From the NCBI GenBank assembly GCA_015680685.1, contig MNCI01002989.1, positions 331,484 through 395,483 on the forward strand: 64,000 nt of DNA, read 5' to 3'. The position numbers and the translations under genes were made by a program. Position 1 is the first letter of the stretch. Every line of letters begins with the position of its first letter. The notes under the pieces are model-generated. The model was not told the DNA's origin and did no database searches. It saw only the letters and a list, made by a program, of their open reading frames with translations. Of the stretch, positions 1 to 25,595 are shown in pieces. Origin of the DNA: Gnetum montanum. Lineage: Eukaryota > Plantae > Gnetophyta.

Positions 1-308
1 AAACTCTGGACGTTACTCTACTTAACCGGTAAGTTGTTGTTCACCCTTTTACCCTATTTTCATGTTTGTTGCAGCATCGTGGTTTGTATATTTTGGGTTC
101 TTATGTTGGTCAGGCGTTAATATCCATTTGTACAAACTAAACTATTGTTATGAAAGTTTAGGCGGTAAGGAATAAGGTTGTACAGAGATAATGTATAGTG
201 TATAGATGTAATGTAATTAGAGTTCTGTAATAATTATATATTACGTCAGAGTAATACGCAGCATTTTCTTTCATCGCTGTCGTCAGAGACGGACCTTGAG
301 CTGTTACA
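1..308 (+). mobile_element. Right end of an LTR of a separate retrotransposon (truncated by the window)
   Basis: TGTA-rich U5-like sequence ending ...ccttgagctgttaca, a canonical LTR terminus, followed by a compositional switch. Confidence 0.5.
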
Positions 309-445
309 AGGGTTTAGGCGGTTTTGGCTATGCACCTCCAGTATATGCTATAGTTTTCCAGGAATTGTGCAAGCCCTAGCATGGCATAACAAATATTCAT
401 GTCTAGATTTTGTCTAACAGTAGCACATTTATATCCTACAATATT

Positions 446-3400
446 ATGCTAAAGCCCGTCCTGATCGTTTTGAACATCGTGGGCGTTCTGTGCTGCGTTC
501 ATGTCCCCGCGGCCAATGTTCCTCCTCCTCATGCTCGTCTAAAGGAGGAGGCAGTGTGGTTCCGAAGAGGCGCACAGGATTTTTTGCAATTTCTGCTTTG
601 CAACTACAGCGTAATCGTCTTGTCACATCTACTAGGCGATGAAGCTGCAGCTATTTTAGAGATGTTATTGGTCGGTTCGACGCATAGCGTCTTAGCGTTT
701 CTATCAGACGGTGTGATTGAAACTATGCAGGTGCAAGACCGCGAACAGAATGTCAGGGGTTTAAGGCATTTAAGCTGGATCTGGAAAATGCTTAGTTTAA
801 CTATTATCACTCCTATAACACTCTATTCGTGGCCCGTCATCCCACAACTTATTTCTAGAATCCACCTGGTACCATGCATTATGCAGGTGGGTAAGTTTCG
901 CTTCATTTTGCAGTATTGTAATGCTAACTACTATTTAGATGCATATTGAGCGTAAAGAGTTGTTTATGCTTCTGGCATAGGTTTTTTAACAATGAAAGTG
1001 GTCTTATGGGCAATAATGATACATTTTCATTGGCTGAGAGTGCTATAAGGGAGTTTACCTCTATCAGCAACGTGCGGGCTATCGTCATGGGACATCTGGC
1101 ATTCGAGATCCCAGAATACCCTACCCGTTATGCTGACTTCTTTTCTAGGTGCAAGAAACTTGGATGGCTGGATAGGGAGTGGACTTTGGACCCTCCCCTT
1201 ACCTTTGCAAATGTTCAAAGGAAAATCCCTTCGTTTCCTTTACCTTTCGAGCTTGGTAAGCTTTGTCGTAATAATGGATTATGTCAATGTTGTGTGATGA
1301 TGATGTGAAATCGTCTTGGTTTAACTGTGGTTTCATGTTAATAGTCAGGGAATCACAGGAGATCACGATCATGGCTTCAGGTCGCGAGGCCAGCAGTCTC
1401 TTCTTTCGTTATGGTGACATAAAGGAGGCACAATGTTGGCTCGGCCATAGAGCAGCCCCAATTGTAGTAACCAATAACATTTGGGAAGCTGGACTGATGA
1501 ACCTTTTCTTGGCCATAACCCCTGATGCTACTGCAGGTGAAATGTTGACCCTAGTCAACTCCTTTAGCGAGGAAGTTGAGCGTCTCTGCATACGTGTACG
1601 TAATGTGTGCGTAAATTTTGACATTGATGTTCAGTTGTTTGCCGATCTCTTTAGCGTCCCCTCCGACGATTTTGCTATAGATGAAAAGTCGAAGAGAAGC
1701 TCCAAACTCCAGAAAGAGATAGAGGAGTGGCTAGGGGTTCAAAAAGAAACTAAGGGGATCCCCAGAGATAGGATTGAGTTACAGGTGGCCCATACCGTTT
1801 ACCCCCTTTTTTGGGCCTGGGCCTTCCCCAAGACACTCTCGCAAGGGAGATTCCTCACCATCGAGTAGGCCTGAATTATGCGAGAGGTCTTAGAGGAGGG
1901 GACACGATTCAATTGGGCAAGCTATTTTGCCAAAGGCTTGCGTGTTGAGATGGTCAGGCTTTGCCAGAAGCTTGAAACCCATTTCAACGTGCATTTTGCC
2001 TTCTTCATAGCTTACTGCAGACATTTTGCCGAATTTCTAGTGGTCCAGAGGAATGGGGTCTGGGTGTAACAAGATCTTAGCCAGATCTCCAAACCATGGC
2101 TCTCCCATATTTTTGGCACTGTCCAGTCACAAGACCCTCCTGAGAGGATCGGGGAGTCATTGTCAGTAATGACTAGAAGTATGGCGGCACCTCGAACGCG
2201 GGGCCAAGACAGTGTGGGTGGAGCATCCCCCTCTTACACCGGCGATGTGTCAAGGGGGAAGCGCGTGGCTGCTGAGATAGTGGATTCGTCAGTGCTGCGG
2301 AAAAGACCTCATTTCAACGAGGGATCTGCCGAGCCAGCGGGTGGTGTCGGGAAAAAGATGCAAATCAGGTTCCAGCGGAGTATTCTTCCAGACGATATGT
2401 GTCCAAATATGTTAGCGGTTATGATTTGCGTAGAGACTGTAGCGTAACATTTGTTGAACAAAAGTGGAATCTTTTGTTAACTAGTCATGTTGTATAATAG
2501 CGAGGGAAAAGGTTGTAGACCGGTTGACCCCTGAAACAGGGGCTATGGTCTTACGGCGTGGAGAAGGGGCCTCGGTCTCGGAAGAAGAGGCCCCAGTTAA
2601 TAAGGCGAGGAGTGCACAGCCTCCTGCGCGTGAAGACAAAATAGCTGTGGAGGATGCCGAAGTCCTTTCGGCTAGAATTAATCGAGGCAAGTGGTTTGTC
2701 GCTTGATAAAATTAATTTTTACTTTGTACTAGTTGTCGTAATATCTCAGTCATACCTTTCATCCTACATAATAGGTGAGCAAAGCGTGCCCTTGACAGTG
2801 GTGGCGACTCAATCCTGGGGGGAATTTCCTGATAAATTCGCATTTATGGAAGGGATCGTTCAAGATATGATCGGTCACTTAGAGCGAATCGATCCTGAAG
2901 TTGGTACGCTACAATCATTACGCGGAGGTTACTTTACTGCAGCATTACGCTACTTAGTTATGCCTAACTGTTATTTTCATGTTATTAGGAGCTCACCTCA
3001 GATGGGACCCGTCAGAGCCTATTGATTTAGACACTGTCGAGCCCTCATCAGAAGTGACCGTCATGCCGTACAACATTTACGATGAGATGCGTAAATGTGC
3101 TTTATGCTCAACTCGCTCCTTATGGGAATGTCAAGGCATAAACGAGGACCTCTGGAAGAGATTGCAGAGGTCGAAGAAGAAGAGAGTGGCTCTACGCGAT
3201 GAGGTTGGGGATCTAAGATCATGGAATGAATTCCTACAAGCCCAGGGGACGGGAAGTGAGGACTAGAGGACAGCTGTCATTGACTACGCCCGTTATTGGG
3301 CTGTCATCAGGAACAGTGTCCAAACTAATCGTGAACTGGTTGAACAGCGTATGCAAATGGACCTCCTTGCTCAGAAGAACCAGGACTGGAAGGACTTTAG

Positions 3401-4107
3401 CGCGAGTATTCAAGAGTAGGGGCAAATGCAAAAAGATCACAAACAAATCTACAAACAAGAAAGTGCTACCTACCGTCAACATTATAGGGACTCTGTCATT
3501 GAGGCTCAATCCCTTCGGCTGTTTCTCGACGTTATAGGTGCTTCCAAGGCATTTGAAAAGTTCCAGGAGCAAGTGACGGTGAGTGCCTCTCTGAAAAGGG
3601 AAGTGACTCTTCCTGGAGGTGAGACTACTATCCCTTCTTTCTTCCCTGAACCACCCCGATGGACTCCTGTGGAGAAGGGGAATGTCAAGTCTAGAACCAA
3701 TCTAGGGGACGGGGTTTGTTCTAAGCTTACCGAGGACGAAATCATGCGACATCTGTGGATCGGCTTAGAACAAGTCCCCTTTGCTGCTGATGCAGGACCA
3801 TCATAGGTAAGTTGCAGTATTATTACATTTTTGTTATACCTAGTTTTGACGACGATGTTAATCTATATACCATGTCTGGTCGCAGGAACGACTTGAGAAG
3901 ATTCCTCGACGGGATGAAGCTAATGAAGGTGGTGGTCCTCATGAAGAGGGTTTACAGGAAATAGAGCATATTGAAGGATCCCACGAAGAGGACCGTCCTT
4001 ATGAAGGGGTTCCTCATGCAAAGGGTGGCCTTTATGAGGACGACCTCCTCAGAGTAGAAGTTGAACTAAGGGATACAGGAGACAGCGGTAGTAAGGGGGA
4101 TGCATAA
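446..4107 (+). pseudogene. Multi-exon gene antisense to the gag-pro element: NIF/FCP1-like HAD domain + plant-transposon extra-ORF-like domain + coiled coil + acidic tail; disrupted
   Basis: Short GT-AG introns 891-980, 1256-1344, ~2928-2988 and 3807-3885 join successive ORFs. Peptides KPVLIVLNIVGVLC, VWFRRGAQDFLQFLLCNYSVIVLS, NTLFVARHP..NPPGT, FNWASYFAKGL. Contains several in-frame stops and frameshifts. Confidence 0.6.
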
Positions 4108-4354
4108 TGAATTAACCTCGTATTTTATTGTGGTATAACGAGACAAGAGACCATATTTCTTTCTTTTAACGTATTTGAGACAAATTTTGGTATTAGTGTT
4201 AATGTTCTTTTTGTTGTTTTCTCTTTATGTAAAATGTATCATAGGTTTTAACGTTATGATAAATTTTGATTAGTTTTAAAAGAATAGCGTCAATGTGCTT
4301 ACTAGTTCGAAACTGTCACGGGCTGTTCAATTGTCCAAACGTAAAGCATAAATG

Positions 4355-4845
4355 ACATTGCTAGTTTAAGGCCATTTTTGGGCCTTGTATAGTTTAAGGC
4401 CATTTCGGGCCTTTTTTAGTAGTTTAAGGTGCCAAGCGTAAATGCATTTCTGGTACATAGCATAAAGGAAATTCAAGTACAGAGCGTCAATGACATTGCT
4501 AGTTTAAGGCCATTTCGGGCCTTGGATAGTTTAAGGCCGTTTTGGGCCCTGGATAGTTTAAGGCTGTTTCAGGCCCTCTTTTTTTTTTTAGTTTAAGGTA
4601 TGAAGAGTAAGCGTAAATTGGATTCCGGTATAAAGCGTGAATGAAATTTGTGCTCCAAGCATAAATGGGATTGAGATACAAAGAGTAAATGGAATTGCTA
4701 GTTTAAGGCCATTTTGGGCCGTAGCTGATTCAAGTGCCATGTGTAAATGAAGTTGCTAGTTTAGGGCCATTTCGGGCCTTTGCGTAATTCGGGTGCGAAG
4801 TGTAGATAAGGTTGCTATTTTAAGGCCATTTCGGGCCTTTTGCGT
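4355..4845. repeat. Dispersed tandem array of ~24-bp hairpin units TAGTTTAAGGCCATTTCGGGCCTT
   Basis: About 10 full or partial copies near 4362, 4390, 4420, 4500, 4528, 4554, 4589, 4699, 4757 and 4817; AAGGCC/GGCCTT arms are self-complementary. Confidence 0.85.
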
Positions 4846-5224
4846 AGGAGTAAAGTAAATAGAAACGTAAAGCCAAGCACAAAGATAAACATGAGACTAG
4901 CTAGTGGAAAACGTAAGTACATGCGTAAACATAGGAAGTATAGACGATAAGCGTAAATAGAATAGATGATGAGACCGTATTAGTTAGGCAACAGTGCTAA
5001 CTCCATAATTGTTTCTTAATTGCTTTGATTTTCAACGACGCATAAGGACGGGGAGATTTATGGCCCTTCCCCTTCACATCGCAATCTTCCTCTGGGAATG
5101 GTAGTTCAGCCCAAGTCAGGCCGTCATCAACCATTGTTTTAGTTCGCTTGGGTACTTGGACAGGGGATGGATTCTCAGGCATTTTGATCTCTGACCCTTG
5201 TTCTGTCTCTATGTTATTAACGGC

Positions 5225-8200
5225 CTAAGGGGTTATTTCATCACCGCGGATAACGAATTCTCCTCCTGCGTAAGGCAAATGGATTTCCTGATGAATGGGT
5301 GATGAAACTACTCTCAGTTGGGCTAACCAAGACCTCCCAAGAATCAAATTAAATCCAGGCATTTCTTCGACCACGATAAACGTAACGTCTATGGGGAACT
5401 GGTCCCCTGCCACAAAGTTGATATGGACAGTCCCTTTGACCTGCACCCGTGTCCCATTGAACAACTTTAGACATGACGTTGTTGTAGGACTAATTTGATT
5501 CATCAAGCCTAATTTATCCACTATGGGATAAGGGATGACATTAGTGGTCGCCCCGTCATCTACATGTACTCTCTGGATTCGGTGTTGGCCGACCCGGATG
5601 GTGATGAACATGGGTGCTGTCGTCACTTGACCCTCAGGATTGTCCTTAATGGATTTGTCATAAAAGGTCAACGGGGTGGGATCTGTTTTTTTAGCGGCAA
5701 GGGGAAGCATGATAGAGTGAATTGCTTCTTCATCTGCTGGCAGGCTTTCATCCACAAGTATGGATGTTAGCATGCGAANGTCTGCTGGCAGGCTTTCATC
5801 CACAAGTATGGATGTTAGCATGCGAACCATAGCCTCACGATGTGTTTGCGACGTCATGAGCAAGTCATAAAGGCTCAATGTTGTATTTTTTTGTTTTAGA
5901 GCCTATTTGACTTGTGCCAGGGCATCAAAGAGATCTTGCCCATGATCGGGTTTTTTGTCACCATTTTCCTCCTCCATTCGCCCTAAGAGGTGAATTTCGC
6001 GGGGAGGAGTGACATTTGGCCAAGGGTTACACTTCCTTTGGCCTGGAGGAGATAATTGCTTTCGTGTAACCTCTTTGTTTTTGACAAGTGGGGCAAAAGG
6101 TGCAGAAGCAAGGCGTTGAGGTTTGGGTAACCCCAGCGTAAGAGGACCCTTAGCTGCATCAACATTGACAGTAGGTGGGTTTGACTTAGAAGATTTCCCT
6201 TGCGTAGGAGGGGCGGTTGATAGTTTTGGCACTCTGATGACTAAGGGTGCCTTGGGTGTAGGTGCGGGCTAGGCCGCGACTTTAATGATTGCAGGCTGTC
6301 GGGAAGCATTCTGAGACACAGTTTGAAGGATGAAAGGGTGCCTTAGAGTGCCACTCTTTGGTGTTGACGGACCCGTTGTTTGGGTCGAGTGAGGTTGCGT
6401 TAGCAACACAAAAGGCTACCTCAGCTGCGCCTAATTGTCACCCTCTATTCCTACCACGTTGATTGTGTACCCTGCGTTGTTTGTATTCAACGGATCTTGG
6501 TACACATGCATGGCCTTGTTTTCTGGGCGTGTCAGGCTACTGCTATCTAAGATCAAGTCACCTTGATCTATCAAACATTGGATGTCATCCTTCAATGCCC
6601 AGCAGTAGTCTGTGTCATGGCCGCACAATTGATGGTAGTCACAGAATCGGTCTAGCTTAAAGTTCTTAGGCACAGGCGATTCATTAGGTTGGGCTAAGGA
6701 GGGATTCTTGAGTAGCTCGCAGTGGTGCCTGTGGTGTTTCAGAGCCTTCTCAGACACCACCTTGTGTCGGATGTGGCCAGTTCCCAATAATTGCTTCAGA
6801 ATTTTTGAAGGCTTCACAGGTAGGGTTGTGTAATTTGAGCGATCTTTACGCTCAAATTTTAGCCTTGGTTGTGGAGATGTTTCAAGGGCAGAAGTAGCTT
6901 CTTGACCTGAGCTGGCTGTCGGCTCAGCTAACTCCGCGGTAGTTTTCTTGCCTTGTTGTTCTTTTTCTTGGCTCCTTCAGCAACCGCCACGACTGTAGTC
7001 GTCGTGACTTTGCCTTTGTCCTTACCCTTGCTGTGGGCGTTTTTGTAGGCCACATATGCTGGATCTTTACTAGCCTCTGCCGCGTCTTGGATGTTCTTAG
7101 TCTGAGCAAAGGCTTGGTTGAGGGAATGGGGGGCGAGGTAATATAGCTTAGACTTGATAAAGTCGTTGACTGCTCCCTTGAAGATTGTCAGTAGATGGGC
7201 CTCCACGATGGGTTCACGGATTTCATTCAAGGTGGCGCTCCACCGTTGTATGAACTTTTGGATTGACTCGAGCAGGTCTTGCTTAACTCCCATGAGCTGG
7301 TCCAGTGTGACTTCTGGCTTCAGGTTGTATTTGAAGCGAGTCACAAACTGGGTTAACAGCTCTTCCAAAGTTGAAATGGAGGCATGTGGAAGTGCTCGAA
7401 ACCAATTTAAAGCTTTACCCATTAAGGACATAGCAAAGACATGGATTATGGTATGCGGCCATTGTTGCAGCAATAAGGACTCTAACCTGAAAGTGACGAG
7501 GTGGGTGTTGGGATCACCTTCCCCATTGTATTTTGTGAAATGGGGAAGGGGTGTCCCGGGTGGCAACGACAAGACTGGGACTATTGGGCTAATAGGATCG
7601 TCATGGTAGAAATCCATGACTTGTACCGTGTTAGAGCCAGCAGCTTTGAGATGTTTGACCTCTTCTGTAAGGGTCTGGATGAGTTGGAAAGCTTGGTCCA
7701 GACCCGTAGACGACGATGTCGTTTGTGGAGCGGAAGGGGGAGCCACATTGGGTGGCGGCACAAAAGCAACAACTTGGCCGATGGTTGGAGGGATAGTCCC
7801 TATAGGCAGTGTTGCTTGCGGCATACACCATCTGGTGGTTGGTGCAGCTGGGGGAACCACCATTAGCTGCGCTATTGGATACGCTGTCTATGTAGCTGGA
7901 GGCACAGGCAGTGGCCCTACAACTGGGTTTAGCACTTGAGGGACGTGGCCCTGAAGGTGGGGATGGTGGTGCATTTGCGCAGAATGCACAACAAGAGACA
8001 TGTTGGGAGCCCACCATGCTATGGTGGTAGGCCCTATCATGTGAATAGGGAGCGTAGTTGGCATTGCAAGTATTGCATGCCCATGCGATGGCACAGGCGC
8101 AGACACACGATGCAGCGACTTAGGCAATCGCGCCTGCTGAGGTATAATCTGTGATGGACCTTCACCTGGGAAGATAGTCAGTGAGAGAAAATGTAAACAC

Positions 8201-8762
8201 AGTGAATGTGGGACTCGATCAGTGTTAGATAACGTCAAAGGTGTGGTGACCATGAACAACGGATTTACACGAGACGTTGTGGAGGGAGGGGCCATGGTGA
8301 AATCGACATGACTGCCTCCCTCAGAGTGGGATTCTAGATCATCTTGTCTGTCGTGAAGCATTTCATTATGGAATAAAGTCTTTAGTTCTTCCGACGATGT
8401 CTGTGCCATCAACATTTGATCTAGGATCCACCTTTGTTAATCTGTCAAGGGTATGAAAGTGGTAGGCGTAAGAATGAGTTCTTTCCCGTTGCGGTACATG
8501 AGCTCGTACTCTCGTTTTTCCTCGAGCTCTTGTGGGTACATAGGCAGGTTTGCCATAACTTAGCATAGAGGAAATTGTAGCTTTCCCTACGCTGAGACTG
8601 TCCCTCAAGCTCCTTGTTTTGTAACATGAGGCAGCGGCGTGATTGCACCAGACTGAGTGGTTGCTCGACCATGGGAGGCGTGACTTGCATGGTAGGCATG
8701 ACTTGCATGGTCCAAGGGTTCTCAAGGCTAGTGGTGTCAATGGCAGTAGTTGATGTAGTCAT
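5225..8762 (-). pseudogene. gag-protease polyprotein, broken by TAG stops and frameshifts
   Basis: ORFs 8445-8762, 7888-8415, 6928-7863, 6431-6817, 5903-6232 and 5225-5878; the last three are in one frame. Confidence 0.85.
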
Positions 8763-9102
8763 TTTTTACACAATTCGGAGATAATGACAACAAAAGTAGA
8801 GATCGGAAGGACAAAGGCGAACTAAGATAATAATCAGGGCTTTTATCTTGTAGGACTCCAAAGGAATCGTCGAAGCGACCGATCTGCATCACACAGTTTC
8901 GTAAACAACCTCGGAAGTATTACGTTTATGTTGATTGCCAATGGGTACAGACAGCTTACAAGACTACCCGTAAAATACGGATCGGATATGAAGGCCCTCC
9001 TTCTAGCGCCAGAAAACTGTAACGATGGAAAACGTCGGTCGCTAGAAATACCGAACGAAAGTCCATGTACACAGTTCCAACCCCGGATCCATGCGAGCAC
9101 CA

Positions 9103-10474
9103 TGCTGGAGAGAAAAAATGAATCCGAGGTGCCCTAAACGGTCTTGTTAATCAAACAAGGACTTATTTAATCAGTAAAAGGTTTGGTAATAATTTTGATG
9201 GAGAAATGGAGATTCTTTATAAAGCGATGCAATGTTTTTAATCCTGAAAGCAATTGAAGATAATGCAAATGATTTAGATAAGATTGCTAAATCCGTCTAA
9301 CTAGGATGCAGGAGATCAGATTTGGTAGATAATATGATCACAAGATCTAGGATTTAATTTATGAAAAACAATATGTTTGATACAATGACTTCAAGCGTGC
9401 TTCGGTTTGGACGAAGCATATGCCAGTAACAAGAAAGTTATGCAAAGATGAAACAAGCGAGGATCGATCTACCTTGATCTAGTCAATCTGGGTGCAAGGA
9501 AATCAGACCTGTGGGAGAATATCCGGTAGCCAATTGTTTCTGATCAATAATTCTTGTCAATCACCTCCAACATTCTCACGATCGCTAATTCTCTTTTGCT
9601 CTCTTGCCAATCTTGAAAGAAAAATTTTGTCAACCCCCCTTGATCTTCGTCAACTGGAGCATTTATAAGGTCAAGGTCAGGAGAAAAACGCGGTTTAAGT
9701 GACGCGTGTCCTGAACTCATAAAATGTCATTGACTCAATGTGTTGTTGTTAAAGCTTACGACGCTATGCTGCGTAACGCGTCGTAAACTACCCTCGTGTG
9801 AGTTTTGATAACAGACTATCCTTTGATTATGCTGAAATACGCTAGAGAGCGTATTATGGCGTATAAACTATTGATGTCTGAATTGTGCTTGTCGTTACTT
9901 GAATTAAGCTGCATTACACTAAATTACGCATCGTAGCGTAATTCAGTGTAAAATAACGAAACCGCAAAAGTTGAAGTGTTGTTGCCATGCTTCCTCTGTT
10001 TCAATCTTTCTCGGGGTTTTTACTACACTGCACTGCGTAAAGCAGCATAATGGGCCCCTTAACCAGGAAAGAAAACCTGCTGAAACGCGCGTCATAGTGC
10101 AAACTGTTGCTTAGGCCTTGAGATTTTTACTGGGCTATCGAAGTATTTCATGTTTGCCATCCTTGATGTTGTGGTGGACTGTCTTTGATATTACGCTGCA
10201 CAATGCGATATTACTCTATGTAGCGTAATATAACGTAATTTGCCAAAAGTTAAGATTTTCAAAATAGATAACTTGCGAAGTTGGAAGTTTTGCCACCATG
10301 CATCCGTCGCTTTGCTCTGTCCTCTGGAATTTGCTTGTGCTGTGCTACGCAGCATGGCGGGACAAACCTTAGACTGAAAAGAAACTTGCTGCGCCGCGCC
10401 TTGTTGTGACCCTTCACCTGAATCACCAGCCTTTTGCTAAACCTCTGAGGCCTTGAAATTTTCATGGTGTTTCA
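9103..10474 (-). repeat. Putative 5' LTR (~1.37 kb) of the gag-pro element
   Basis: On the minus strand it starts TGAAACACCATGAAAATTT, exactly at the junction with a different gag copy, and ends ...ctctccagCA followed by TGGTGCTC (candidate PBS). TATA (ccttataaat) at 9661-9670. Confidence 0.55.
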
Positions 10475-11930
10475 AGGATAAAGGAAAAGCCACAACAACG
10501 ACAGTAGCGGCGGTTGCTGAAGGGGTCAAGAAAAAAAACAATAACAACAAGAAAACAACCGCAGAGCCAACCGAGCCAACAACTAGCTCAAATGGCGCCA
10601 ATTAAGAAGCTCCTTCCGCCCCCTGAAGCATCCCCACAACTGAGGCCAAAATTTGAGCATAAAGACAGCTCAAATTACGCAACTCTACTTGTGAAGCCTT
10701 TAGAACTTCTGAAGCAATTACTGGGAACCAGCCACATCCGACACAAGGCAGTGTCCGAGGAGGCTCTGAAACATCACAGGTGCCACTATGAGTTACTCAA
10801 GAATCCCTCCTTGGCCCAACCTAATGAACCGCCCGTTCCTAAGAACTTTAGGCTAGATTGATTCTGCGACTACCATAAATTGTGTGGTCATGACACAGAC
10901 AACTGCTGGGCATTGAAAGATGACATTCAACGTATGATTGATCAAGGTGACCTAATCTTAGACAATAGTAGTCCAGCTCACTCAGAGAATCAAGCCATGC
11001 ATGTGTACCAAGATCTATTAAATGCAAATAACGCAGGATACACAATTAATGTGGCAGGAGTGGAGGGTGATAATCAGGTGCAGCCGAAACAGCCTTTCGT
11101 GTTGTGAACGCATCCTCGCTCTCCCCGAACAACGGATCCATCAACATCGACAAGTGGTGTTCCAAGGCAACCTTTTATCCTTAGAGCCCCTTCTCAGACA
11201 ACTTCTCGACAGCCCCCTATTGGTAAAGCTGTGGCCTAGCCCGCGCCTGCACCCAAGGCTCCCTTTGTCATCAGGATGCCAAAACCATCAACTGCCCCTC
11301 CTGTGCAGGGGCAAACCTCCAAGTTAATCTTCCAATCCCAACTTAACAAAAAAGGAGAAGGAAGTATGACAACTGGTACGGCCAAGGACCATCTTACGCT
11401 AGGGTTTCCCAAGCCTAAACCCCTAGCTTCTGTACCCTTGGCCACATTTTCTAACAATGGTGAAGTGACGCAAATGCAACCATCTACTCCTAGCCAAAAG
11501 AAACACAGCCCTTGACCGAATGTCACTCCTCCACAAGAAATTCGTCTCCTAGGGTGAATGGAAGAGGAAAAGGATGACAAGCAGCCAGATCGGGGGTGGG
11601 ATCTCTTCGACTCCTTTATGCAAGTCAAATAGGCTCTAAAACAAAAAAATACAATGTTGAGAAACCTAGGCCTTCCTTATTGACCTTTCATGACATCACA
11701 GAAACATCGTGAGGCTATGGTTCGTATGCTGACATCCATACCCGTGGGCGAAAGCCTGCCAGTAGATGAAGAAGTGATTCACTCCATTATGCTTCCTCTC
11801 GCAGCTAAGAAACCTGGGCCTTCCTTGTTGACCTTTCACGATGAATCCATTAAGGATGACCCAGAGAAGGGTTAGGTGACAATGACACCCATGTTCATCA
11901 CCATTTGGGTTGGCCAACACCGAATTCAGA
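10475..11930 (+). mobile_element. Older gag/pro fragment of the same family, in opposite orientation
   Basis: Colinear with the reverse complement of 5572-7022 (e.g. CGHDTDNCWALKDDIQRMIDQGDLILD, SQKHREAMVRMLTSIP); many stops. Confidence 0.9.
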
Positions 11931-14371
11931 CCAACTGGTGGGAACCAGGCAACCGATTCTAGATGTCTTCAATCTTCTGAACAACATAATTGTAACTTAC
12001 TTGGAGCTATTGGAAGCAAGGGTCAAGAACATCATTCTGGAGGGCCAACTTGAAATAGCCAAAGAGCTAAATGAATGCTTAGCTATGGAGGTTGTCGAAC
12101 TAAGAGCCCATATTGTTGACCTTGCATTCCTCAACCCAATACTAACAAAGAATAAAGCTCTTGAACATCTTCACATAAGACTAAAAGGCGTTGAGGGTGT
12201 GATGGAGATGGTGGTGTTCTATTGATCCTTGGTAGAGGCCACTTAGCATAAAATTTAGAAGGCCTTGGATTAGACCCGCTAGGAGATGGTACAATTGACT
12301 ACAAAGAATCATTGCCTACGAAATGTTGATGCATAAAAATAGAATATGGTAGATTTCATCCATCAATAGTATGAATAGCTAGGCAGAGTGAACACTAAGC
12401 TGAGGAGATTAGCAGTAGAAAATAGAAACCTCTCTATCGAGGAGGTCCGTGCTCTTCGCCAAAAGACTACAATCGAAGTAGTCACTTGGAAATTAAAGGC
12501 TCTCAAATTTGAGAGAGTCAAAAATTACTACAGATATTAGCTTGGTCTACACAAATAAGTTAATGAAAAACACATCTAGTTAGTGAAGGAAAAGGTAAAT
12601 GAGAGCCTCCAGTAACTCCAATAAGGAAGAGAGGTATGACAACCTATCATTGATGGTATAGATGCCTACAACAAAGTGGAGATTCACATGGAGGAGTTGT
12701 AGATTAAAGAGATGATAGAATACATGGAGCTTACCAATCTTCGATATGCAAATCTGGTTATGCTGAGTGTTAGACGACCGTAGTCTAAATTGGAGAAATA
12801 AGTGGGTAGCTTATACTTGTTGTATAAGACAAAGTTCAAGCATCACAAGGACACCAAGTAGAAGCTTGTAGTGGTAAATGCGGAACTCAAGGTTCTCAAG
12901 GCGAAGTTCACTGATCAAATATTAACTACTAAGAACCTGGCCAAAAGGATGAATGAGTACTAAGAGTTGCAGAATACAATTAGGGTGTTTGATATTGAAT
13001 GTAAGCAATTCATTGCTTAGTTTATCAATGTCAAGGAGTTGTTCCCAAAAATGCTTTATCTATGGGATATCCCCATTCCAGCCCACATTGGTGATGTCAC
13101 GTGAATTGTGAATGATCCTTGGAGCAAGGAGGAGAAGATGAAGAAATTGTTGGATGCCTTTCACCTTCCACTAGAAGTGGCAGCTATAGCAAGACAACCA
13201 TAGCTGCCTCAACCACTACGTGCACCCAAAGTTGGAGAAGGTTCTTTGGAGCCCTAGGAACCTCCACCACTTGGGACCGTCTAACCTTTTTAACCATCTT
13301 CATGCTATCAGAGGATGTGTTGTGCAATTTTATTCAATCATGTTCTGGTGTTCAATTTCATGTCATGAACACCATAATTTTGTAATCAATGTCGATCTGT
13401 ACACCTAGGCACTTAGTTTTGTTTTTTTATGTTACCTTGGTTGTATCATAAGTTGGTTAATAATTCCATACCTTTCCCATTTTTGTAAAGATTTAGTCAT
13501 GGGGGTATGATTAAGTGTCTTTGGTCAACTACATTGATAGGATGCCATTGACAGGATCCTGTCAATGTAGGGTTTTCTGCATTGACGTATACTTGTCGAC
13601 ATGGCATCCTGGTAGGTCTATAAATACAGCATCCCAGTTGTGTTAATGAGAGTTAGATTTTTAGTTGCTAGTGGAATTCTTATAGTTTGTTTTCATAAGA
13701 GAGAATAATTTTCTAAGTGCTTGTGGCGAGAGTTAAGAAGTGTATGGATCTTTATTTTAGCACTATTGTACCTGAGCATTACATTGTGTGCGACAATAAA
13801 GATGAGCTTTTTGATAAACCTTGCAGCACTTGGACTAGCTTAATGATTTATTTATGAATTTATTATTTTAATTAATTAAACTAGAATTATTAAGATTTTA
13901 AGTAATTAATTAATTAAGCTAAATACACTAGCATACATAAGTACAACCACTTCAAACATATGTATAACACTTGGTAATCCCAGTAGCGCTTAACGCTTGG
14001 TCGCCCAATAGTGTTATATTTGTTCAGGATGTGTACAGAAAGTCAGACCAGATGCTTATGTTAGGATAGTTAGTTAGTAATTAGCAATTAAATTAGTTGA
14101 ATTATTTAATTAATTTATTCTCAATCTATTACCAACCTTAGGTGAACAATATATAAAAATGATAAAAATCATGTTCCTAGATTACACTTAATCATACAAC
14201 TGAGCCTCACAAGTGTAGTTGGGAAGACAATGATCATTCCATGATTAGATTCACCTTCTAGATTGAATCTTGTGTACAAGAACACTAGGAATCAATGGAA
14301 TTCAACCAAATCATACGTGAAAGCCTTAGTGATTCGAATGGTTGGGCGTAGGGGTACCTCACTACTCATCA
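11931..14371 (+). mobile_element. 3' portion of an Athila-like element: degenerate coiled-coil ORF, PPT and 3' LTR (13508-14371)
   Basis: PPT-like tcatgggggta followed by TGA...CTCATCA; LTR and pre-LTR sequence resemble the reverse complement of 14876-15750. Confidence 0.7.
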
Positions 14372-14875
14372 CTTGTCGACGCATCATAGGATGCATTGGC
14401 GCATGTGTGTTGATGCTAATCCAACCATTGCCTATATAATAAGTATGCACACCTACCTCAATTATGACACCATTTGGTCGATTCCCTAGTCAAACTCTTG
14501 AAATTTCTCTTTGTAAAATTTAGCAAACTTTTCCTCATGAGTGCTTGTAGTGTGGATTGAATTGATTATACAACATTTTATTTTGGTGCAATATGTACCT
14601 AGACGCACTTGCTTGAATGACAATAAAATCAAGATTTATTCTATCCATTGCAACACTTAGATTAGTTTAAATTTATTTTCTAACACTTTAGTTTGAATGC
14701 AATTTACTTTCTTGCCTTTAAGCATTTAATATGATATAATTTTTAATTAACGTGAGTATGACCACTTCAAGCATAATATACTAACACTTAGTAATCCTAG
14801 TAGTAGATACTTGGCATGCCCAATAGTAAACACTTGGTAATTTAGTAGTGTTAGTATATGTTCAAGATGTGTCCA
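14372..14875 (+). repeat. Left piece of an interrupted related LTR
   Basis: Similar to the interior of LTR 13508-14371; continues at 26389. Confidence 0.65.
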
Positions 14876-15681
14876 TGATGAGCGGCGAGGTATCCCTACG
14901 CTTAACCATACAAATACGAGCATCTATGCACGATTCGGTCGAATTCCAAGGACTAAGTGCTTATGTGCCTTTGTAGAACAAGGATGGGTTGATCAATCAT
15001 TGTCTTCCCAAGCTTACTTGTATAGCACAATTGTATGGTTAAGTAAACTTGAGGTACTTGATTTTTATAGTTTTTATGTTTTATGTCCTAGTGCTACAAA
15101 GGGAGGAGAGAGATAACTAAGTAACTAATTTTGATTTAACTACTCAACTATCCCTTAACTAGTCCTAACACCAGCATCTATTTTCACTTGTCGTACACAT
15201 TCTGAACTAGTGCAACACTACTGGGATTACCAAACTCTAACCATTACTAGGTTACCAAGCATTACATGCATGCTCGAAGTGATCATACTAAGTGTGCTTA
15301 CTTAGGAGAGTTGTAGGGGGAGAGAGAACATTAATTAACTAAGGAAAGCATTAAGTAACAGTAATTAACATTAATTAATCTATTCTGAATGCTGCAAGGT
15401 TTATGACAAAGTTCATCTTTATTGTCGTACACAAGATGTGCTCAGGTACACAATGCTCAAATAAATATTCGTTCACTTTATGACTCATACTGTAGGCACT
15501 CAGAAATAATTCTATCTCTGGAAAGGGAAAAAGGCAAGAGTTTGGGTAAGGGACTAAGACTAACTATGCAAACCAAGTGTGCCTGCCTCTTATTTATAGG
15601 CAATGAGGTAGGCCCCAATATCGCGTACATGATATTGCTTGGAAGGCTCCAATATTGCGTACTTGATATCGTAGCTCATCA
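14876..15681 (-). repeat. 3' LTR of the Athila-like element
   Basis: Direct repeat of 25596-26388; adjacent PPT tacccctac at 15682. Confidence 0.9.
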
Positions 15682-17635
15682 TACCCCTACGACTAAATGA
15701 AAACTCATCCTCAAGTTCCTTACAAAATATTGGGAAGGTATGGGATTATTGATTGAATGAGAACTGACTGCGACAAAGAATAACAGACTCAAAGTGCCTA
15801 GTGAACAGATCGACAAACATATTACAACATTGGTGTTCACGCCCTTTATGGTGAACACTGTACATAGATGATATCTGAACCCTCATTCGACAACTTCAAG
15901 AGAGAGTAAAGAAACTGAGGCCCATTGCTACCGACGTCACGATTACGCCTTCCGTTGTTTATCCATAGCCATGTGACCAAACTTGTTCCCAGCATAAACC
16001 CTCCAGCTCTAATCCATTCCAAGTGCTTCCGCCTATCCTAGTCCATAGTTCATGCAATTGCCATTTGCACACAAAACACAATCACAAATGAGCAAGGATA
16101 AGTAAACCATAATGCAGTTGATACCTTGCCTTGATATAAAGTATTGGCTGGGTTGTGGTTATGACAGAAACTCGGTTAGAGGTTTATCACTAATAACTAC
16201 CCAAGTTCTAGGGGTGACACAAGTAGTAGAATGGAAAAATTTGTGATAGGCCCCCCACAACTAAGAGCGAACCTCCGGTAGCAATAGGGTGGAAAAGTAT
16301 AGGGAACAAGAAAAATGGGAAAAATAACAATGACGATGCTAATAAAATGGATGTCATGGATGGGGATGAAATGAGAAATTGCTGATTGCAAGAAATGTTT
16401 AAGGAAAAGAATTTAATAATTACACCATAAAGAAATGTTAGTGGTCCTCCCCAAAGTAGGCTCATGCCCTTTATGGCCTAACAAACCCACAAACCAAAGA
16501 GTCCATAGGCTCTAGGAATGACATATGGAACCGGTGGTTAAAGATTGACCTACAAGAATTTACCAAAAAATAACAATGCATTAACCAGGAGATAAACTAA
16601 TCATAAAATCGGCAATGAGGTGGAAAATGGGACGAAAGATGGAGAGTAGAAAATGGAATGGAATCCCAAGAGCAAGGTTGTGTAAAGTCCCTTGTGTATA
16701 TTATGGTTAAGGTAACTAAGTAGAACTCATTCCAAATCCAGACTCAAACCAACCACATTCAGTGACCTCACATCAATACACTTGGCCAATCCATCCCCTT
16801 GAAGAAATAAGAATGCTTCCCCAAAGAGCCACCACCATTCCAAGGAGAGCGAGATGGAGAAGCAAGAAGCAAGAAAGGGCCTTAGTTAGAAAGAACCTTC
16901 AGGCATGGGTAACATGTCTTTCCAGTGCTTGTAGCCTAGATTTCTTCATTATGTCTAAGGGATGTGCTTTGAATTCTCACCAGTTTTTTTTTAACGTGAG
17001 AACCACACCACGCAAAGAATTATTTGATTTATTCGACTTCCTAATGTTTGGTCATCAGAAGAATGGCGGAGAACCCATGAAAAGTATCCCAAGTACCCAG
17101 GAGAATAGCCAGCACACATGCATCAAATCCCCTTGAAGTCACATCCTTTTCAACCATTGAATCCTTCCTCGATTTGAAGAATATGAAGCCACCAATTTAT
17201 TAATAAATTTATTTAGAAAAAGGGATAGTACAGTTCCAAGACCAAGCGAGACCATAGAGTTGAATGGACGAATGGACGGTGTGGGCTCATTGCCTGTTTT
17301 ATCAAAAGAACCATATCATAGTATCATCATTGAAAATCAAATGTAAAAACCCAACATTAACAATCAACACCATTATAGTACAATCCACCATCATGAGCAC
17401 TTATTGTATGATGAATGAAAGTAAATCAAACAAAGAAATAGGAAAAAATGTAAACCATGGTGTAAAACAAAAAATAAATAAAATTGTAAAACAAAAGATA
17501 CAAAAAAAAAAGAGAGCTGAGGGCTTAGAATGGTTAGCATTGGTGGCCATCTCCCCCACAACTAAGTTGGAAGAAGGAGATCCAAAATAACGAGCAGGGT
17601 TGTCCACCAATAGATGTAGTATTGGTACTAGCTAT

Positions 17636-20600
17636 TCAAAGCTCATGAAAGGGTTTGGTTTGTTGGATGTTGACCAAAAATTTCTTATCTGGGCTCTCAA
17701 GTTTGTAAATCATCATGGCCCCTAAAGGAAAAGTTGCATAAATAATATAAGGTCCTTCCCACAAGGTTTGAAATGTAGTGCGTTGTGGCACATGTGTGGG
17801 ATTCCAGTATAGAACCTTATCTCCTAGTTGATATTTAACTTTCCTAATTTTCAAGTCATGACATCATTTATTGAAGGCCTTATGTAATTCGTTAGATGAC
17901 AGGGCGGCTAATCGATTCTCATCTAGTAAGTTAAGGGTCATTAACAGTTCTTTTTGTGCTAGATCAAGGTCAAGGTTGAGATCACACGCCATAGATAGTG
18001 TATGGAGTTCTACTTGAATGGGAAGTGTTGGAAGTTCCCTGTACACTAACTCATAGGGAGAGTAGCCTATAGGGAGTTTTCATGTGGAGCGGTATGCCCA
18101 AAGAGCATCATTCAGTTTGGTGCTCCGATCTCTCCTATACTTACTAATAGTTCTTATCAATATTTTTGTAATCTCTCTATTGGTGACCTCGGCTTGACCA
18201 TTCACTTGAGGGTGGTATGGAGTAGTCAATTTGTGTTCAACCCCTAAGCGTTGCATCAGCTTCCGAAAAGTTGCACCTATAAAATGTGTGCCATTGTCAG
18301 AAATAAGTGCACGAGGCATGCCAAACTTGTTTACGATTTGTTGTTGAACAAATTGTGCAGCTGTAGATGAGGTAAAATCCTTAACAGTAGCTGCTTCTAC
18401 CCATTTTGTAAAGTAGTCAATAGCAACAACAATGTAAGCTTTCCCATTGGACATTGGTGTAATGGGCCCCATAAAATCAATTCCCCATATGTCGAAAGGT
18501 TCTAAAGGTTGAATCCATTGTTGTGGACCCTCCATTCTAGCAGTCATTCCCCCATCACATTGACAATGCTCACAAGATTGGATGAAATGATGGACATCCC
18601 AAAACAATGTAGGCCAATAATATCCTGTAGGTAGGATTTTAATGGTTGTTCATCTCCCAACATAATGACCCCCCACAAAGACCCTCATGAGCATCTTGGA
18701 GAACTCGTAGTTGATTTATATTAGGAACGCACCATCGAACCAAGCCATCGGGACATCCTTTATAAAGTTTCCCATTGATCTCCATAAAATACTTGGCTCA
18801 GTGAAGGAACTGTGGTTTCTTTTTAGCATCTAACTCTTGTGGTGTTTTTTGTGTAACGAGATAGGTGAGAATACTACTATACTATTTTGTTTCCATGGTC
18901 AATTGATTAGTTACTACACTTGCAAAGAGGAGTTCATTGGGGAAATGATCAGAAATTGGATACTCATCTTCTTTGTTGTCCCATCGCAACTGAGATAAAT
19001 GATCAGCAACTATGTTCTCGATGAGTTTACGATCAATCATTATAAGATTGAATTCTTGTAAGATTACGAGCCATCGTATGATGCAAGGGTTCATCATTGG
19101 TTTATTTATTAGGAACCTTATTGCACTATGATCCATGTGCATGAATACCTTATAGCCCAAGACATAGTGCCTAAATTTTTCTAGTGCAAACACTATAGCC
19201 ATTAATTCTTTCTCTGTTGTGGTGTAGTTAAGTTGTGCACCAGCAATACTCCTACTTGCATAGTGGATATAATAAGGATGTTTTTGGTCATCTAACTATG
19301 TAAGTAAGCATAGTTGGATGCATCAGTCATTATGCGGAATGGTCTGGACTAGTCAGGAGCTTGTAGAATGGGTGTTTCTATGAGCTTCTATTTTAACGTT
19401 TGGAAAGCTAGTTCGCATTCCCTAGTCCATTGAAAAGGTACGCCCTTTTTCGTTAGTTCAACCAATGGTCTTTCAACCTTTGAAAAGTTCTTAATAAACC
19501 TTTTTTAATAGCCAGTGTGTCCAAGGAATGACAGGATATCTTTTACAGTTTCAGGTTGCTGAGTGATTCCTTAAATAACTTTGATCTTTTCGGGGTCTAC
19601 CTATATCCCTATTTGTGAAATATTATGCCCTAATATGACACCTTCTTGGACCATTAAATGGCTTTTTTGCTAGTTGAGCCTTAAATTGGTTTTTACACAT
19701 GACTTTAGTACTTACTCTAACTGGTCCAAGGCTTGATTGAAGTTCACTCCGTAAGTGGAGAAGTCATCCATGAAGACTTCCACAGCATTTCCTATCTGCT
19801 GCTGGAATATGCTTAGAACTAATCATTGAAACATTGCAAGGGTACTGCACAAGCCAAACAACATTTGTTTGTATGCAAATGTTCCCCAAAGACTAGTGAA
19901 TGCAGTCTTGGCTTGGTCTTCTGGGGCTATTTGTATTTGGTTGTACCCACTGTACCCATTCAGAAAACTATAGTAGCGATGCCCTGTAATGGTGTCTAAG
20001 ACTTGGTCGACGAATGGCAATAGAAAGTGGTCTTTGAATGTTGCCATATTCAGTAGCCTAAAATCTATGCACATCCTCCATTTACCTCCCTTTTTGGGCA
20101 TAATAACTAAGGGGCTAACCCATTCACTATCAGCAATGGGGTATATGAACCCAACTTTTAGAAGCTATTCAATTTCTTCCTTAACCACTTGCTTAAGCTT
20201 TGGGTTCAATCACCTCTGCGATTGTCATCTAGGCTTCATGGAGGGGTCGGTGTAAATTCTGTGCTGGCATATCCTAGGATCTATTCCAGTTAATTTGGAT
20301 ATGACTAAGCGAAGGCTTTCAACCATTTTTTTATCACCTTCAATAGTCTCTCTTTCTATTGAGGAGCAAGCTTCGCGTTAATAATTACCGATTTTCCATT
20401 CTTGAGAAACGTGTACTCCATATCGGTGGGCAATGGTTTTAACTCAAGGGGCTCTTGCTTAAACTTATCAGGGATTTCCAACTTTCCCCAGTTGATATTT
20501 TCAATGTCAAGACTTGGAAGTTGGTGATGGACTTACTCTAATGTGTTTATGCTATCGATGTAAGCGCAAGTCAAACCCTCAATTGGTTCCATGCATATAG

Positions 20601-21332
20601 TTGAACTACTCTCTTGATCAACTATCAGCCACTGGGTGCCTTCTTCTCTTGTGGTTGTTGCATACAGGCATCTTTGTATATTAGTCACTTGTGGACACTG
20701 ATTACATGTAAGCAATGTTAAATGTTGTACAAATCATGCCTTCTGCATGCAATTACACCCTGTGTCATTGTATGCGATGCATGGAACTTTCCTCTTCTCA
20801 ATCTTCCCAAATGTATTTTCCTTTGATATTTCCAGGGAAGGATCACAGATTCCTAAGCATGCGTCAATTCTGCTTAGCCATGCTCTTCCCATTATGATTG
20901 GGAAGTCCCCTTACCATTGTTCACTTGAATCAATCGGAAGTCAGCTGGATACAACCACCCACAAATAGTGGTATCAATGTCCTCCACTAGCCCTAATGGG
21001 ATAGTGATGGACTGGTCGGCCAACTCTAAATGAATGTTACTCTTTTTTAGTGGAGGCAGGTTCTAGGCTTTGTACATTTCTTGAGAGATTAGGTTGACAC
21101 CGGAACCTAAATCCAAAAAAGCCTTGCACGGTTCATTCCCAACGATTTGTAAATATATAAGAGAACTTCCAGGATTACAAAATTTCCTAAAAAGATGATC
21201 GGCCTTAATCCAATTGGTGATGGCATGAGTTAACATGACCATATGTGTTAGGCACGGTGTTTGGCCTGAAGGGAGTTCCGAAGTTTTGATTGGTAATGAG
21301 GCATCTAAAGGATTAGCCACTTGTGGTTGCAA
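17636..21332 (-). pseudogene. pol (PR-RT-RNaseH-INT) of the Athila-like element, fragmented
   Basis: ORFs 21063-21332, 19823-20101, 18882-19202, 18080-18607 and 17636-17854. Confidence 0.9.
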
Positions 21333-24300
21333 GGGCTTAGGTGGACTTTTGGCTCTAAAGAAAGGTCTTTTCTTTATGCGGTTGTCAAAACCAATAGTAG
21401 ATTGAGAGTTAACAACCCTTGTAGTGTTACGTTGTTACAGCTAGGCAGGGAGTTCACCCTACATAGCTGGAGTAGGTGGTAATGGAGATATGGGTGGAAG
21501 AGGTGTAGCCGGATGAGAAGGATAGTATGTCTATGGAACGTCACCCCTAGGAGAAGGAGTCCTATAGTACTCATGAGCTTGGTAGTGAGGTTGAGGAGTG
21601 ACGTGACCAGTAGAGTCATGTGGAGAGATTGGCTGCTGCACGTAATATCCATACAGGTCAGTTTGCCAGTAAGGATACTGTTGTCGTGGTGGTGGCATTC
21701 CCCATAATTGTGGGTATTGCCACTATTGATACTGATCGATTGGTTGTGGTGGAGTTCCACTTGGATAATATGTTAAGGGTTGGTGGAACTGCCTTGGGTT
21801 ACCTTGAGGATAAGGAAACCTTTGGGGTGTTTACCTTTTGTTTAATCATGGGTTGAGTGCATACACCCCAGACTCCTGCAGATGTGAGATTACAGGGCAA
21901 CATCCCTTAGGATGGTCATATTGGCATATCTCGCATCCACTATCATTGTCTGTATTCGAAACCATAACCTCTTCGATGATGGCAACTTTGTCCTTACCCT
22001 TGTTACATGCATATTCTGCTTCTCTCTTCTTCTTTTTCTTTTCCCATTCACTACCTTGCTCTCTAGACTCCTCTACTATTTTGAGAACAGTTTGAAATTT
22101 ATCATCTAGGGAGTCCCACATTTGGTCTACCTTTGCCGATACTTTTCATGTAGGTTTTTGAATGTGTAAAGTTTTCCTATTCACCATCTCTTTGAGTGGT
22201 GACTCTTCTTCATCCTCACAAAATCTTACTCCCTTCTTTCGGAGGGAAGGATCTCTGTTATATTCCTTCGCACTTTCTCTTTTCTGTAACTCACCTCCCT
22301 CTTTAGCAACTTGCTCCAATAATCTTTGTACTTGATGGGTCCTAAGCCCAGATAGTCTTCCTTGGGCATAAGTCCCAAGGGTTCTTTGTGTTTCATGCCT
22401 AAGCTCATCTACGAGATGGCGTAGTTGATCCCTCTGTGAATAACCATGCTAGGACAATGATATAACAGTGCATAATATTGGCCCATGGCAGCATCCAAAG
22501 GTTCATGTCCTCCTTGTCTCCAGCCTTGGATTTGCTTTCACAGGTTGGACACTCGAGAGTACGTTTGGTACTTATTGTTGAACAATTCTAACATGGTACT
22601 CCACCTATGAATGGATTCCAGTTCTAAGGACCGGTACTAGCTTTCCGCTTCTTTGATTAGCATCCGTGGAAACAACTTTAATTTTTGCCATTCATTTTTT
22701 ATGTTTTATAAGGTACATGCATCATGAAATGCTTGTAGATGATTTTGAGAACCAACGTTGTATCCCCCTTCAAATCGTGGGATGTTATTCATATCTAATC
22801 TCTTGATCCTACTATCTTTTTGATGCCTTGTTGGAATTCTAACAGCCTCAGTTGTGTCCAACATACTTCGAGTAGCGAGGAGGGGTTCATTGTGATCGTC
22901 TTGTCCATGGCATCTATGATGCCTACGTTGTTCCCTACTCTCCCTTCTTTCACGGTGTGTTTCTCTAGAGTGCCCTTGTCCCCTTTCTTGACTATTTTGT
23001 CTATGACTCCTATTTTGCCTACCCTTATCCTCATGGTCTTTTTCTTTGTGACTATGTCCAGATCCTAAAGGAGAGGGTGAAAGAGATGATGAAGGTGAAG
23101 AAGAAGGAGGACCATCACCATGTTGGTGCCTGCTTCCTTCTCTTCGGTGGTCATGGCCTCAATCGCGGTTATGATCGGAATGTCCATCTTTGTTATGTGT
23201 TCGTGTTCCTTTTTTAGATCCTTTATGTCTGTCGATACCAAAATTCTGGTTATGGATAGTTGAGTAAAGATTCTAATACACAACTCCTTGACTAAAGTCA
23301 ATGGGAGGAACATCATTGTGTGGGCAATTACCTAAGGCAGGTTCATTACCCTCATTTTCTCTTAGGACATGTGGGACATTTTGCGACAACTTTCCCTTCA
23401 TGGATTCATGATGTCTCTCCTATTGTAAATCCCTTTGATGTTGTGCCTCCGTGGGTCGGTACTCTTTTGAGTCATGATTGAAACACCACTAATTTTGGCC
23501 TAACACTTTGAGACGAGAACAACTTAGAGCCTTTTTAGCTTTTGGAAGGTAAAAATTTGACTAAGGCATGTAACTCACATTCGACTTGTCAAGCTAGCTT
23601 ACCCTCAGCATGAGCTACTCCAACAACTTCAAGATCAAGTCAAAACGGTCCAACTTGAGGGTACAAGCCATCCTCAAAGGTTACTATTGTCCACTTTAAG
23701 TTTTAGCATTCAGGAGTTCAGATTTCGAGCCAAATTGCACAAATTTTCCTAGGTCACGCTGGCAGCGTGAGTACAGCGTGAGCAACTATAAGAGCCTCAA
23801 AACAAAGTCAAAATGGTCTGACTCCCAAGGTGCAAGTCATCCTCAGGGTTCATTACTAACAACTCCAAGTCCTTGCCTCCAGAATTCTAGATTTCAAGTC
23901 CAAAATTGCAAACTTTTTGTAGCTCACGTTGTGGTCACGCTAAGCTCACGCTAGTAGCATGAGTCCAACGTGAGCTACCAAAAGGGGTTAAAAACAAGGC
24001 ACATCCAAGCTCAGTTTTTGACTTGGAGATCACTCTCAAGGTCAACCATAATTAGGCAATTGCTGTACTCAAGAAACAGGCTTCAAAGATCAAAATTTGG
24101 TGTGGAATGTATTATTTTTAACTCACTCACGCTGAGGTCACGCTGGCAGCATTAGTACTGATCAATCCCGGTCAAAAGCATGCCAAACACATGCTGAAGA
24201 CATGCCAAGACGAAATCAACTCACGCTGGAAGCTTGTGTGAGGTAGAAATGCCTCAAACAGCCACATGATCACTCACATCAGCACTCGGCAGCAATCAAA

Positions 24301-25575: not shown

Positions 25576-25594
25576 GTCCTCGGCAATGGTGCCA
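25576..25594 (-). promoter_or_regulatory. Primer binding site (tRNA-Asp type)
   Basis: Minus strand TGGCACCATTGCCGAGGAC vs Athila consensus TGGCGCCGTTGCCGGGGA, 1 nt from the LTR end. Confidence 0.85.
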
Positions 25595-25595
25595 A

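Follow-up and report, generated by a model that had tools for sequence, protein, structure and literature searches.

Layout of the locus

The window, by which we mean the whole analysed stretch of 64,000 nucleotides from Gnetum montanum, is repeat-rich DNA with long introns, and its elements and genes look plant-like. A broken gene runs along its plus strand from 446 to about 4107, and in it GC-rich (0.44-0.50) and AT-rich (0.32-0.34) blocks alternate, with GT..AG bounds. The open reading frame starts at the ATG at 446, and 446-890 of the plus strand encodes the core of an FCP1/NIF-type HAD domain; in this copy the domain exon is interrupted twice, by a stop codon at 856-858 and, near 795, by a frameshift. 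The gene can be laid out as follows:

446..890, plus strand: exon of the NIF-type HAD core, DxN branch; the frameshift is missing in 3/3 reads of RNA run X11
891..980, plus strand: predicted intron, GT..AG, phase 2, GC 0.34 against 0.44-0.47 in the adjoining exons
981..1255, plus strand: predicted exon after the HAD core, with no significant NIF-tail or Pfam match
1256..1344, plus strand: predicted intron whose removal would bring the NIF part together with the exon that follows, GT..AG, phase 1, GC 0.34
1345..2390, plus strand: predicted exon (right edge approximate) for a domain that matches no known family and, after it, a linker rich in Ser and Gly, with stops at 1866, 1872 and 2067
2989..3806, plus strand: predicted exon with a charged part, judged coiled-coil-like by eye, ahead of a C-terminal region, with stops at 3264, 3417 and 3804
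3885..4107, plus strand: last exon, acidic, predicted from the sequence
4240..4260, plus strand: possible polyadenylation site of the plus-strand transcript in other copies; 5 reads of RNA run X12 diverge past 4250 into an A-run, and the window itself has no A-run near 4250

The four RNA runs yielded no splice joints, including for the intron at 891-980. The start at 446, the change of frame near 795 and the GT..AG intron at 891-980 in matching phase are as an earlier note on this DNA had placed them. The note had also read a third domain motif (DVR.FV..HPF) in 981-1255; this NIF-tail motif is at chance level, 588 of 2,000 shuffles scoring equally well, and was rejected. On the other exons, Pfam matches to SpoIIE_N, NRN1, DUF1993, DUF4080 and DUF7647 fell far below the cut-off and were disregarded, and neither PMD nor Transposase_28 was matched by Pfam on the predicted exons.

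Beyond the gene lie a repeat array and the remains of a Gypsy element:

4333..4840, strand not assigned: degenerate direct-repeat array, 8 matches in one orientation
5228..5902, minus strand: Gypsy aspartyl protease (PF13650, E=1.4e-5), its frame ending near 5000
6434..8436, minus strand: broken gag region (PF03732, E=5.7e-7 in 6931-7887)
8993..9011, minus strand: primer-binding-site-like motif, recognised from the sequence, which we take to be of the tRNA-Arg type
9018..10473, minus strand: presumed 5' LTR region, with an LTR-like inner edge at 9018 and a nominal outer bound

In the available text of PMC6317226, tRNA-Arg primer-binding sites dominate among Ogre (89%) and TatIII (64%) elements. 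The broken gene is antisense to gag-protease and lies on its 3' side. No reverse transcriptase, RNase H or integrase remnant of the gag-protease element was found in 1-12000, where tblastx with the pol sequence from another element of this DNA was also empty. A partner LTR was likewise not found in 1-5000, nor a 3' LTR within the window, and the gene's membership in the element is therefore inferred from the layout of one copy. By analogy with known elements, the gene probably belongs to the LTR element. The description of the locus in the earlier note, a retrotransposon-associated antisense gene, holds for its many copies and for its antisense position beside gag-protease; it is less secure in that the layout is that of a single copy with no 3' LTR in the window.

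Several other features of the region were recorded. At 10474-11930 lies an inverted fragment, from gag to protease, that belongs to the same family and is 74% identical to 5572-7023. Around the single N of the window (5733-5826, in the protease frame), 46 bases are duplicated exactly, likely an assembly artefact. A second LTR element spans 14869-26376, with 788-bp LTRs that are 92% identical and minus-strand RT/RNase H/integrase-like remnants, and an inverted LTR piece related to it lies at 13698-14246. From 27718 onward there is a long-intron host gene; it presumably is a THO2-like gene, and we take the remnants within it near 44-47 kb and near 55-59 kb to be Copia-like and LINE-like, respectively.

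The NIF-type domain and its relatives

The earlier note had recognised a NIF/FCP1-type HAD domain in the first exon and had called for a check against Pfam. A Pfam scan of 446-793 agreed in matching NIF (PF03031) as the single family, but the score, 15.7 bits (E=0.012) for the 116 residues ahead of the frameshift and not for the core as one piece, is below the 21.8-bit gathering cut-off. NIF references came from a motif scan of viral contigs, in which 3 of 20 matches were NIF proteins; the remaining 17, not being NIF ORFs, were set aside. Compared with these three viral NIF proteins by hhalign, 446-793 gave E=7.8e-5 over 111 columns. Two homologue searches, with the window piece in the alignments, returned 72 and at least 120 proteins, all of them PF03031. 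When the 2,753 six-frame fragments from the window were scanned with a profile HMM of the 72 NIF proteins, built without the window sequence, a single fragment matched (407-946, E=7.5e-8), the next E being 0.95. Over residues 6-155 the X-patched read-through of the gene reached 37.8 bits; the highest score among 2,000 shuffles was 3.0. Scored alone, the part behind the frameshift (796-888) matched in the correct order, and 4 of 2,000 shuffles reached the same score. The match is collinear over about 150 residues at about 20% identity. The domain that the earlier note described is thus real, and 446-890 almost certainly derives from the NIF family.

Searches with 446-793 alone were empty: none of 294 candidates among longer proteins at E 0.01, no match among 1.84 billion representatives, chance-level matches only in the PDB and no match in NCBIfam. 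This means that no close annotated relative was found with the single sequence. A single-sequence structure model showed a HAD-like order of strands and helices (pLDDT 51) and no HAD structural match. The alignment-guided model (pLDDT 78) matched CTDNEP1 (E=3e-4) and SCP1 (Z 8.2, rmsd 3.4, 100 aligned), matches that are circular because the guiding alignment consisted of NIF proteins; the strand of motif IV, beyond the frameshift, lies outside the folded piece. With the same circularity, this model would give the domain the fold of SCP1/CTDSP1, FCP1, CTDNEP1, UBLCP1 and the pseudophosphatase Tim50. The best match of the family profile is UBLCP1.

Judged from its sequence, the affinity of the domain is with the DxN branch of the NIF family. 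Motif I reads D-x-N in 192 of the 192 listed relatives, a count to be read with the fact that the seed motif itself selected for D-x-N, and the window also shares the GVL and NT..NP context of the branch. The likeness to the DxN(G) branch (PF03031; available text of PMC13216928) comprises a collinear core, GVL after motif I, the Trp-Ser of motif II and NT..NP. The earlier note had likened the family to the DxDxT phosphatases of the RNA polymerase II CTD; this comparison has to be given up, and the DxN branch is the proper reference. Unlike the DxDxT phosphatases, the window domain has neither DxDxT nor the acids of motif IV, and there is no sign of a Pol II CTD substrate. Fungal NIF proteins of the "DXNXT" kind are candidate pseudophosphatases, as the consulted part of PMC13216928 has it. 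Among the 192 matches listed, none is named as a seed-plant host NIF protein. In a tree of 49 sequences (the window and 48 of the 192 listed relatives, hand-picked for spread), the window forms a branch of 2.5 substitutions per site, the next longest being 1.17, and pairs with protein P0066 with a support of 65.

Catalytic residues, copies and selection

The positions of the four HAD motifs differ between this copy, the relatives and the other copies:

473..481, plus strand: HAD motif I, Asn-Ile-Val here; transcribed copies have Asp at the first position, and +2 is Val against Asn in the relatives
620..625, plus strand: HAD motif II, which is Leu-Ser in this copy; Trp-Ser accounts for 67-78% of the contig depth across the four DNA runs
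764..766, plus strand: HAD motif III position, Arg; Lys in 190 of the 190 covered relatives, whereas other copies show no change that reaches 45%
832..837, plus strand: HAD motif IV position, Ala-Arg; Asp-Asp in 187 of the 189 covered relatives, whereas in other copies no change reaches 45%

The residue directly after motif IV is Lys in 189/189 relatives and Thr in the window, which across the catalytic columns thus reads Asn, Val, Ser, Arg, Ala-Arg and Thr. In comparison with the DxN(G) branch, the window domain is encoded by a repeat, is about 20% identical and has +2 Asn replaced by Val, the Lys of motif III by Arg, Asp-Asp by Ala-Arg and the next Lys by Thr. In HAD phosphatases the first Asp of motif I is the nucleophile and the second the acid/base, Ser/Thr and Lys hold the phosphate, and the acids of motif IV bind Mg2+ (PMC8069645, available part).

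Other copies of the gene are abundant. The numbers of contigs aligned to 452-880 (429 bases) were 3,456, 3,010, 3,079 and 2,277 in four DNA runs, which represent four organism labels from three studies, and these contig totals are no copy number. The run that matches best may come from the organism of the window itself. The gene belongs to a large repeat family common to related species, and the earlier note's assumption of many copies is confirmed in all four related organisms. In each of the four DNA runs, summed contig depth is about 10x as high at 512-541 as over the remaining domain. Of 26 DNA differences at 45% or more, 16 are A-to-G or T-to-C and three are the reverse; such a bias from G/C to A/T in the window sequence is what would be expected from decay of this copy by deamination. 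With its frameshift, its stops and this G/C-to-A/T decay, the copy in the window is dead.

Most other copies restore the Trp ahead of the Ser of motif II, and the Ser itself (623-625) shows only a silent change in other copies, as does 847-849. In the four DNA runs, 764-766 and 832-840 are free of differences that reach 45%, and the neighbouring positions 756, 785, 825, 842 and 849 do carry such differences. The loss of motif IV and the exchange of Lys for Arg are therefore majority states, in a comparison that covers copies at least 80% alike and whose 45% threshold would mask a minority Asp-Asp subfamily. The DNA difference rows lie within 510-849, so that position 473 and the stop at 856-858 are outside their range and a large share of copies with Asn is possible.

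No RNA run was among the indexed runs listed as containing the sequence. Transcription of the family is very low: 245 reads aligned out of about 51 million records in four RNA runs. Since 239 of the 245 are less than 95% alike to the window, the transcripts stem from other copies. In X11 and X12 most first mates align to the minus strand, consistent with plus-strand RNA; in X14 they are mixed. The nucleophile Asp at 473 is encoded by 20 of 21 RNA reads, whereas this copy has Asn. The acid/base Asp at +2 is absent, Val taking its place here; among the best 40 of 169 RNA rows there is no change at 479-481, and positions 473 and 478 do appear among these 40. The earlier note had described the domain as lacking catalytic aspartates. 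For motif IV this holds in most copies, where it reads Ala-Arg, but the Asn of motif I is specific to this copy. Because Asp-Asp of motif IV is replaced in most copies, the gene family is a predicted pseudophosphatase, in which canonical catalysis would be lost, and the view of the domain as a pseudo-phosphatase is supported as a prediction. We consider it likely, from the residues present, that the family is catalytically dead throughout.

An alternative explanation is that the product of the family is a HAD hydrolase active without metal, in which the retained Asp acts as the nucleophile and the Arg residues stand in for Mg2+ and Lys. Metal-free HAD chemistry occurs in haloacid dehalogenases. 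The Asp in the RNA reads, the retained Ser of motif II and the conservative nature of the exchange of Lys for Arg in motif III would fit such an enzyme. However, both the motif IV acids for Mg2+ and the second Asp are missing (roles as given in the consulted part of PMC8069645), and the parent DxN branch is itself a candidate pseudophosphatase (PMC13216928, in the text available), so we regard this explanation as very improbable.

Synonymous changes make up 6 of the 9 RNA-supported differences that fall in the domain (expected fraction 0.31, p=0.028). In 2991-3803 they make up 12 of the 23 (expected fraction 0.28, p=0.012). The test uses 33 of the best-supported 40 of 169 rows, 7 rows lying outside the modelled exons. 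The DNA majority differences show no excess (8/26 synonymous, p=0.57); this is the result that private decay of one dead copy would give, and it lends selection no support. The evidence for purifying selection on the family, read from these substitutions, is weak; we nevertheless lean towards the view that the domain has been kept by selection.

If it was not, the domain would be a relic passenger whose function was lost before the family expanded, leaving a folded N-terminus or an untranslated remnant with no binding role. The very long branch in the tree points in this direction, as do the alteration of four residues or residue pairs that are invariant or nearly so in the relatives, the neutral appearance of the DNA majority differences and the minimal transcription. 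The loss of the conserved Lys after motif IV and of the Asn at +2 fits general decay as well as repurposing. On the other hand, the reading frame, the nucleophile Asp and Trp-Ser are retained in other copies, the RNA-supported differences lean towards synonymous change, and the match to NIF is collinear over about 150 residues. We therefore think a relic rather doubtful, though it is the most probable of the alternatives to a non-catalytic binding module.

Origin and possible role of the gene

Intact domains of the DxN branch occur in other multi-copy sequences. In Adiantum nelumboides, the P0107 cluster is a 20-member family, 90% identical and with scattered locus tags, that has an intact DxN-NIF domain at the C-terminus; its proteins have 889-1246 residues among the 15 listed. 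This cluster is probably transposon cargo annotated as host genes. Intact D-x-N/Asp-Asp NIF domains are also found in 41- and 16-member metagenome clusters, whose loci have a eukaryote-like context and include one stop-broken copy. On four metagenome contigs, L021-L024 (e.g., L023, 1943-2659), an intact, multi-copy DxN-NIF gene lies 3' of a 519-residue low-complexity frame that matches no Pfam family; this locus resembles what may be a bryophyte-type mobile element.

These relatives raise the possibility that the gene is that of another mobile element, such as a CACTA- or Sola-like DNA transposon, or was taken from one, and was not captured from the host; in the strong form of this explanation the gene merely adjoins the gag-protease fragment. 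The multi-copy families of the fern and the metagenomes, the weakly supported pairing of the window with P0066 in the tree and the absence of a 3' LTR from the window agree with it. However, a CACTA reading of the array at 4333-4840 is unlikely, since its repeats are all direct and no conspicuous CACTA-like end lies between the gene and the protease; the position and orientation of the gene are those of known 3' antisense ORFs; and no other part of the fern and metagenome NIF proteins matches the remaining exons of the gene. As an account of the gene as a whole this explanation seems unlikely to us, and for the domain, transfer from another element is as possible as the capture from a host gene that the earlier note had proposed.

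As the gene of an LTR element, the locus compares with the 3' antisense ORFs of the Tat clade (the PMD of Ogre, Transposase_28 of Retand and gene23 of Grande; PMC7264820, PMC6317226 and PMC11963269, each as far as available). Shared features are the antisense orientation, the position 3' of gag-protease, an adjoining tandem array, weak transcription and a charged, coiled-coil-like part. Unlike those ORFs, the window gene has no PMD or Transposase_28, begins with a NIF-like domain, has several predicted introns and is accompanied by no pol. PMD and Transposase_28 are common but not universal in 3' antisense extra ORFs. Cellular enzyme domains in the extra ORFs of Gypsy elements have precedents, according to the available text of PMC9289625 and PMC6317226, in the AlkB domain fixed in Ogre-like elements of orchids and in the lysine-decarboxylase/LOG-like ORF of Athila. 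The orchid AlkB keeps its cofactor-binding residues (PMC9289625, same portion), whereas the metal ligands of the window family are lost in most copies.

The earlier note had known of no such domain among the described Ogre/Tat extra ORFs, and this agrees with what we found. NIF is missing from the published table of extra-ORF domains in the available part of PMC6317226, a table restricted to E<=1e-10 and at least 5 elements that would miss a domain this diverged. Literature searches of titles and abstracts found no NIF/FCP1/HAD domain in an LTR element; the word "phosphatase" occurs nowhere in the main text of PMC6317226 or PMC11963269; and NIF, HAD and FCP1 are missing from five supplements of PMC6317226 and from the main text of PMC9289625, whose supplementary domain chart could hold NIF. 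A NIF cargo in a Gypsy extra ORF is thus apparently undescribed, extra ORFs and captured enzyme domains as such being already known.

Our preferred interpretation, which we consider evenly balanced between right and wrong, is that the element has this gene, dead in the present copy, as an accessory gene of its own and that the NIF-type domain is a non-catalytic binding module. A promoter on the side of the 3' LTR would drive a spliced, polyadenylated transcript, from which one protein would be made, with the NIF-like domain followed by the domain without a known family, the linker and the coiled-coil-like part. Without the acids of motif IV, canonical binding of Mg2+ would fail, and hydrolysis is therefore predicted to be lost. 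The Ser of motif II, the Arg of motif III and the new Arg of motif IV may form a basic pocket able to hold phosphate without a metal, and the protein might in this way bind a phosphorylated partner from the host, or shield it, to the benefit of the element's expression. That the domain binds a phospho-group is a tentative suggestion, possible but not probable. A bolder version, which we think improbable, is that mobile elements of plants have recruited the DxN-NIF domain recurrently and that here, fused to the antisense accessory protein, it serves as a metal-free phosphate trap on a phosphorylated silencing or transcription factor of the host and so as an anti-silencing pseudoenzyme.

The origin and function of the antisense extra ORFs of plant Gypsy elements are a stated open question, and most of these ORFs resemble nothing known (PMC7264820, in the portion available). 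Here such an ORF begins with a recognisable signalling-enzyme fold, and the loss of specific residues alongside the retention of others across many copies provides a testable handle on the fold, the pocket and the binding partner. Since DxN-NIF domains are also present in further multi-copy repeats of plants, this uncharacterised branch seems to have been put to use by mobile elements more than once.
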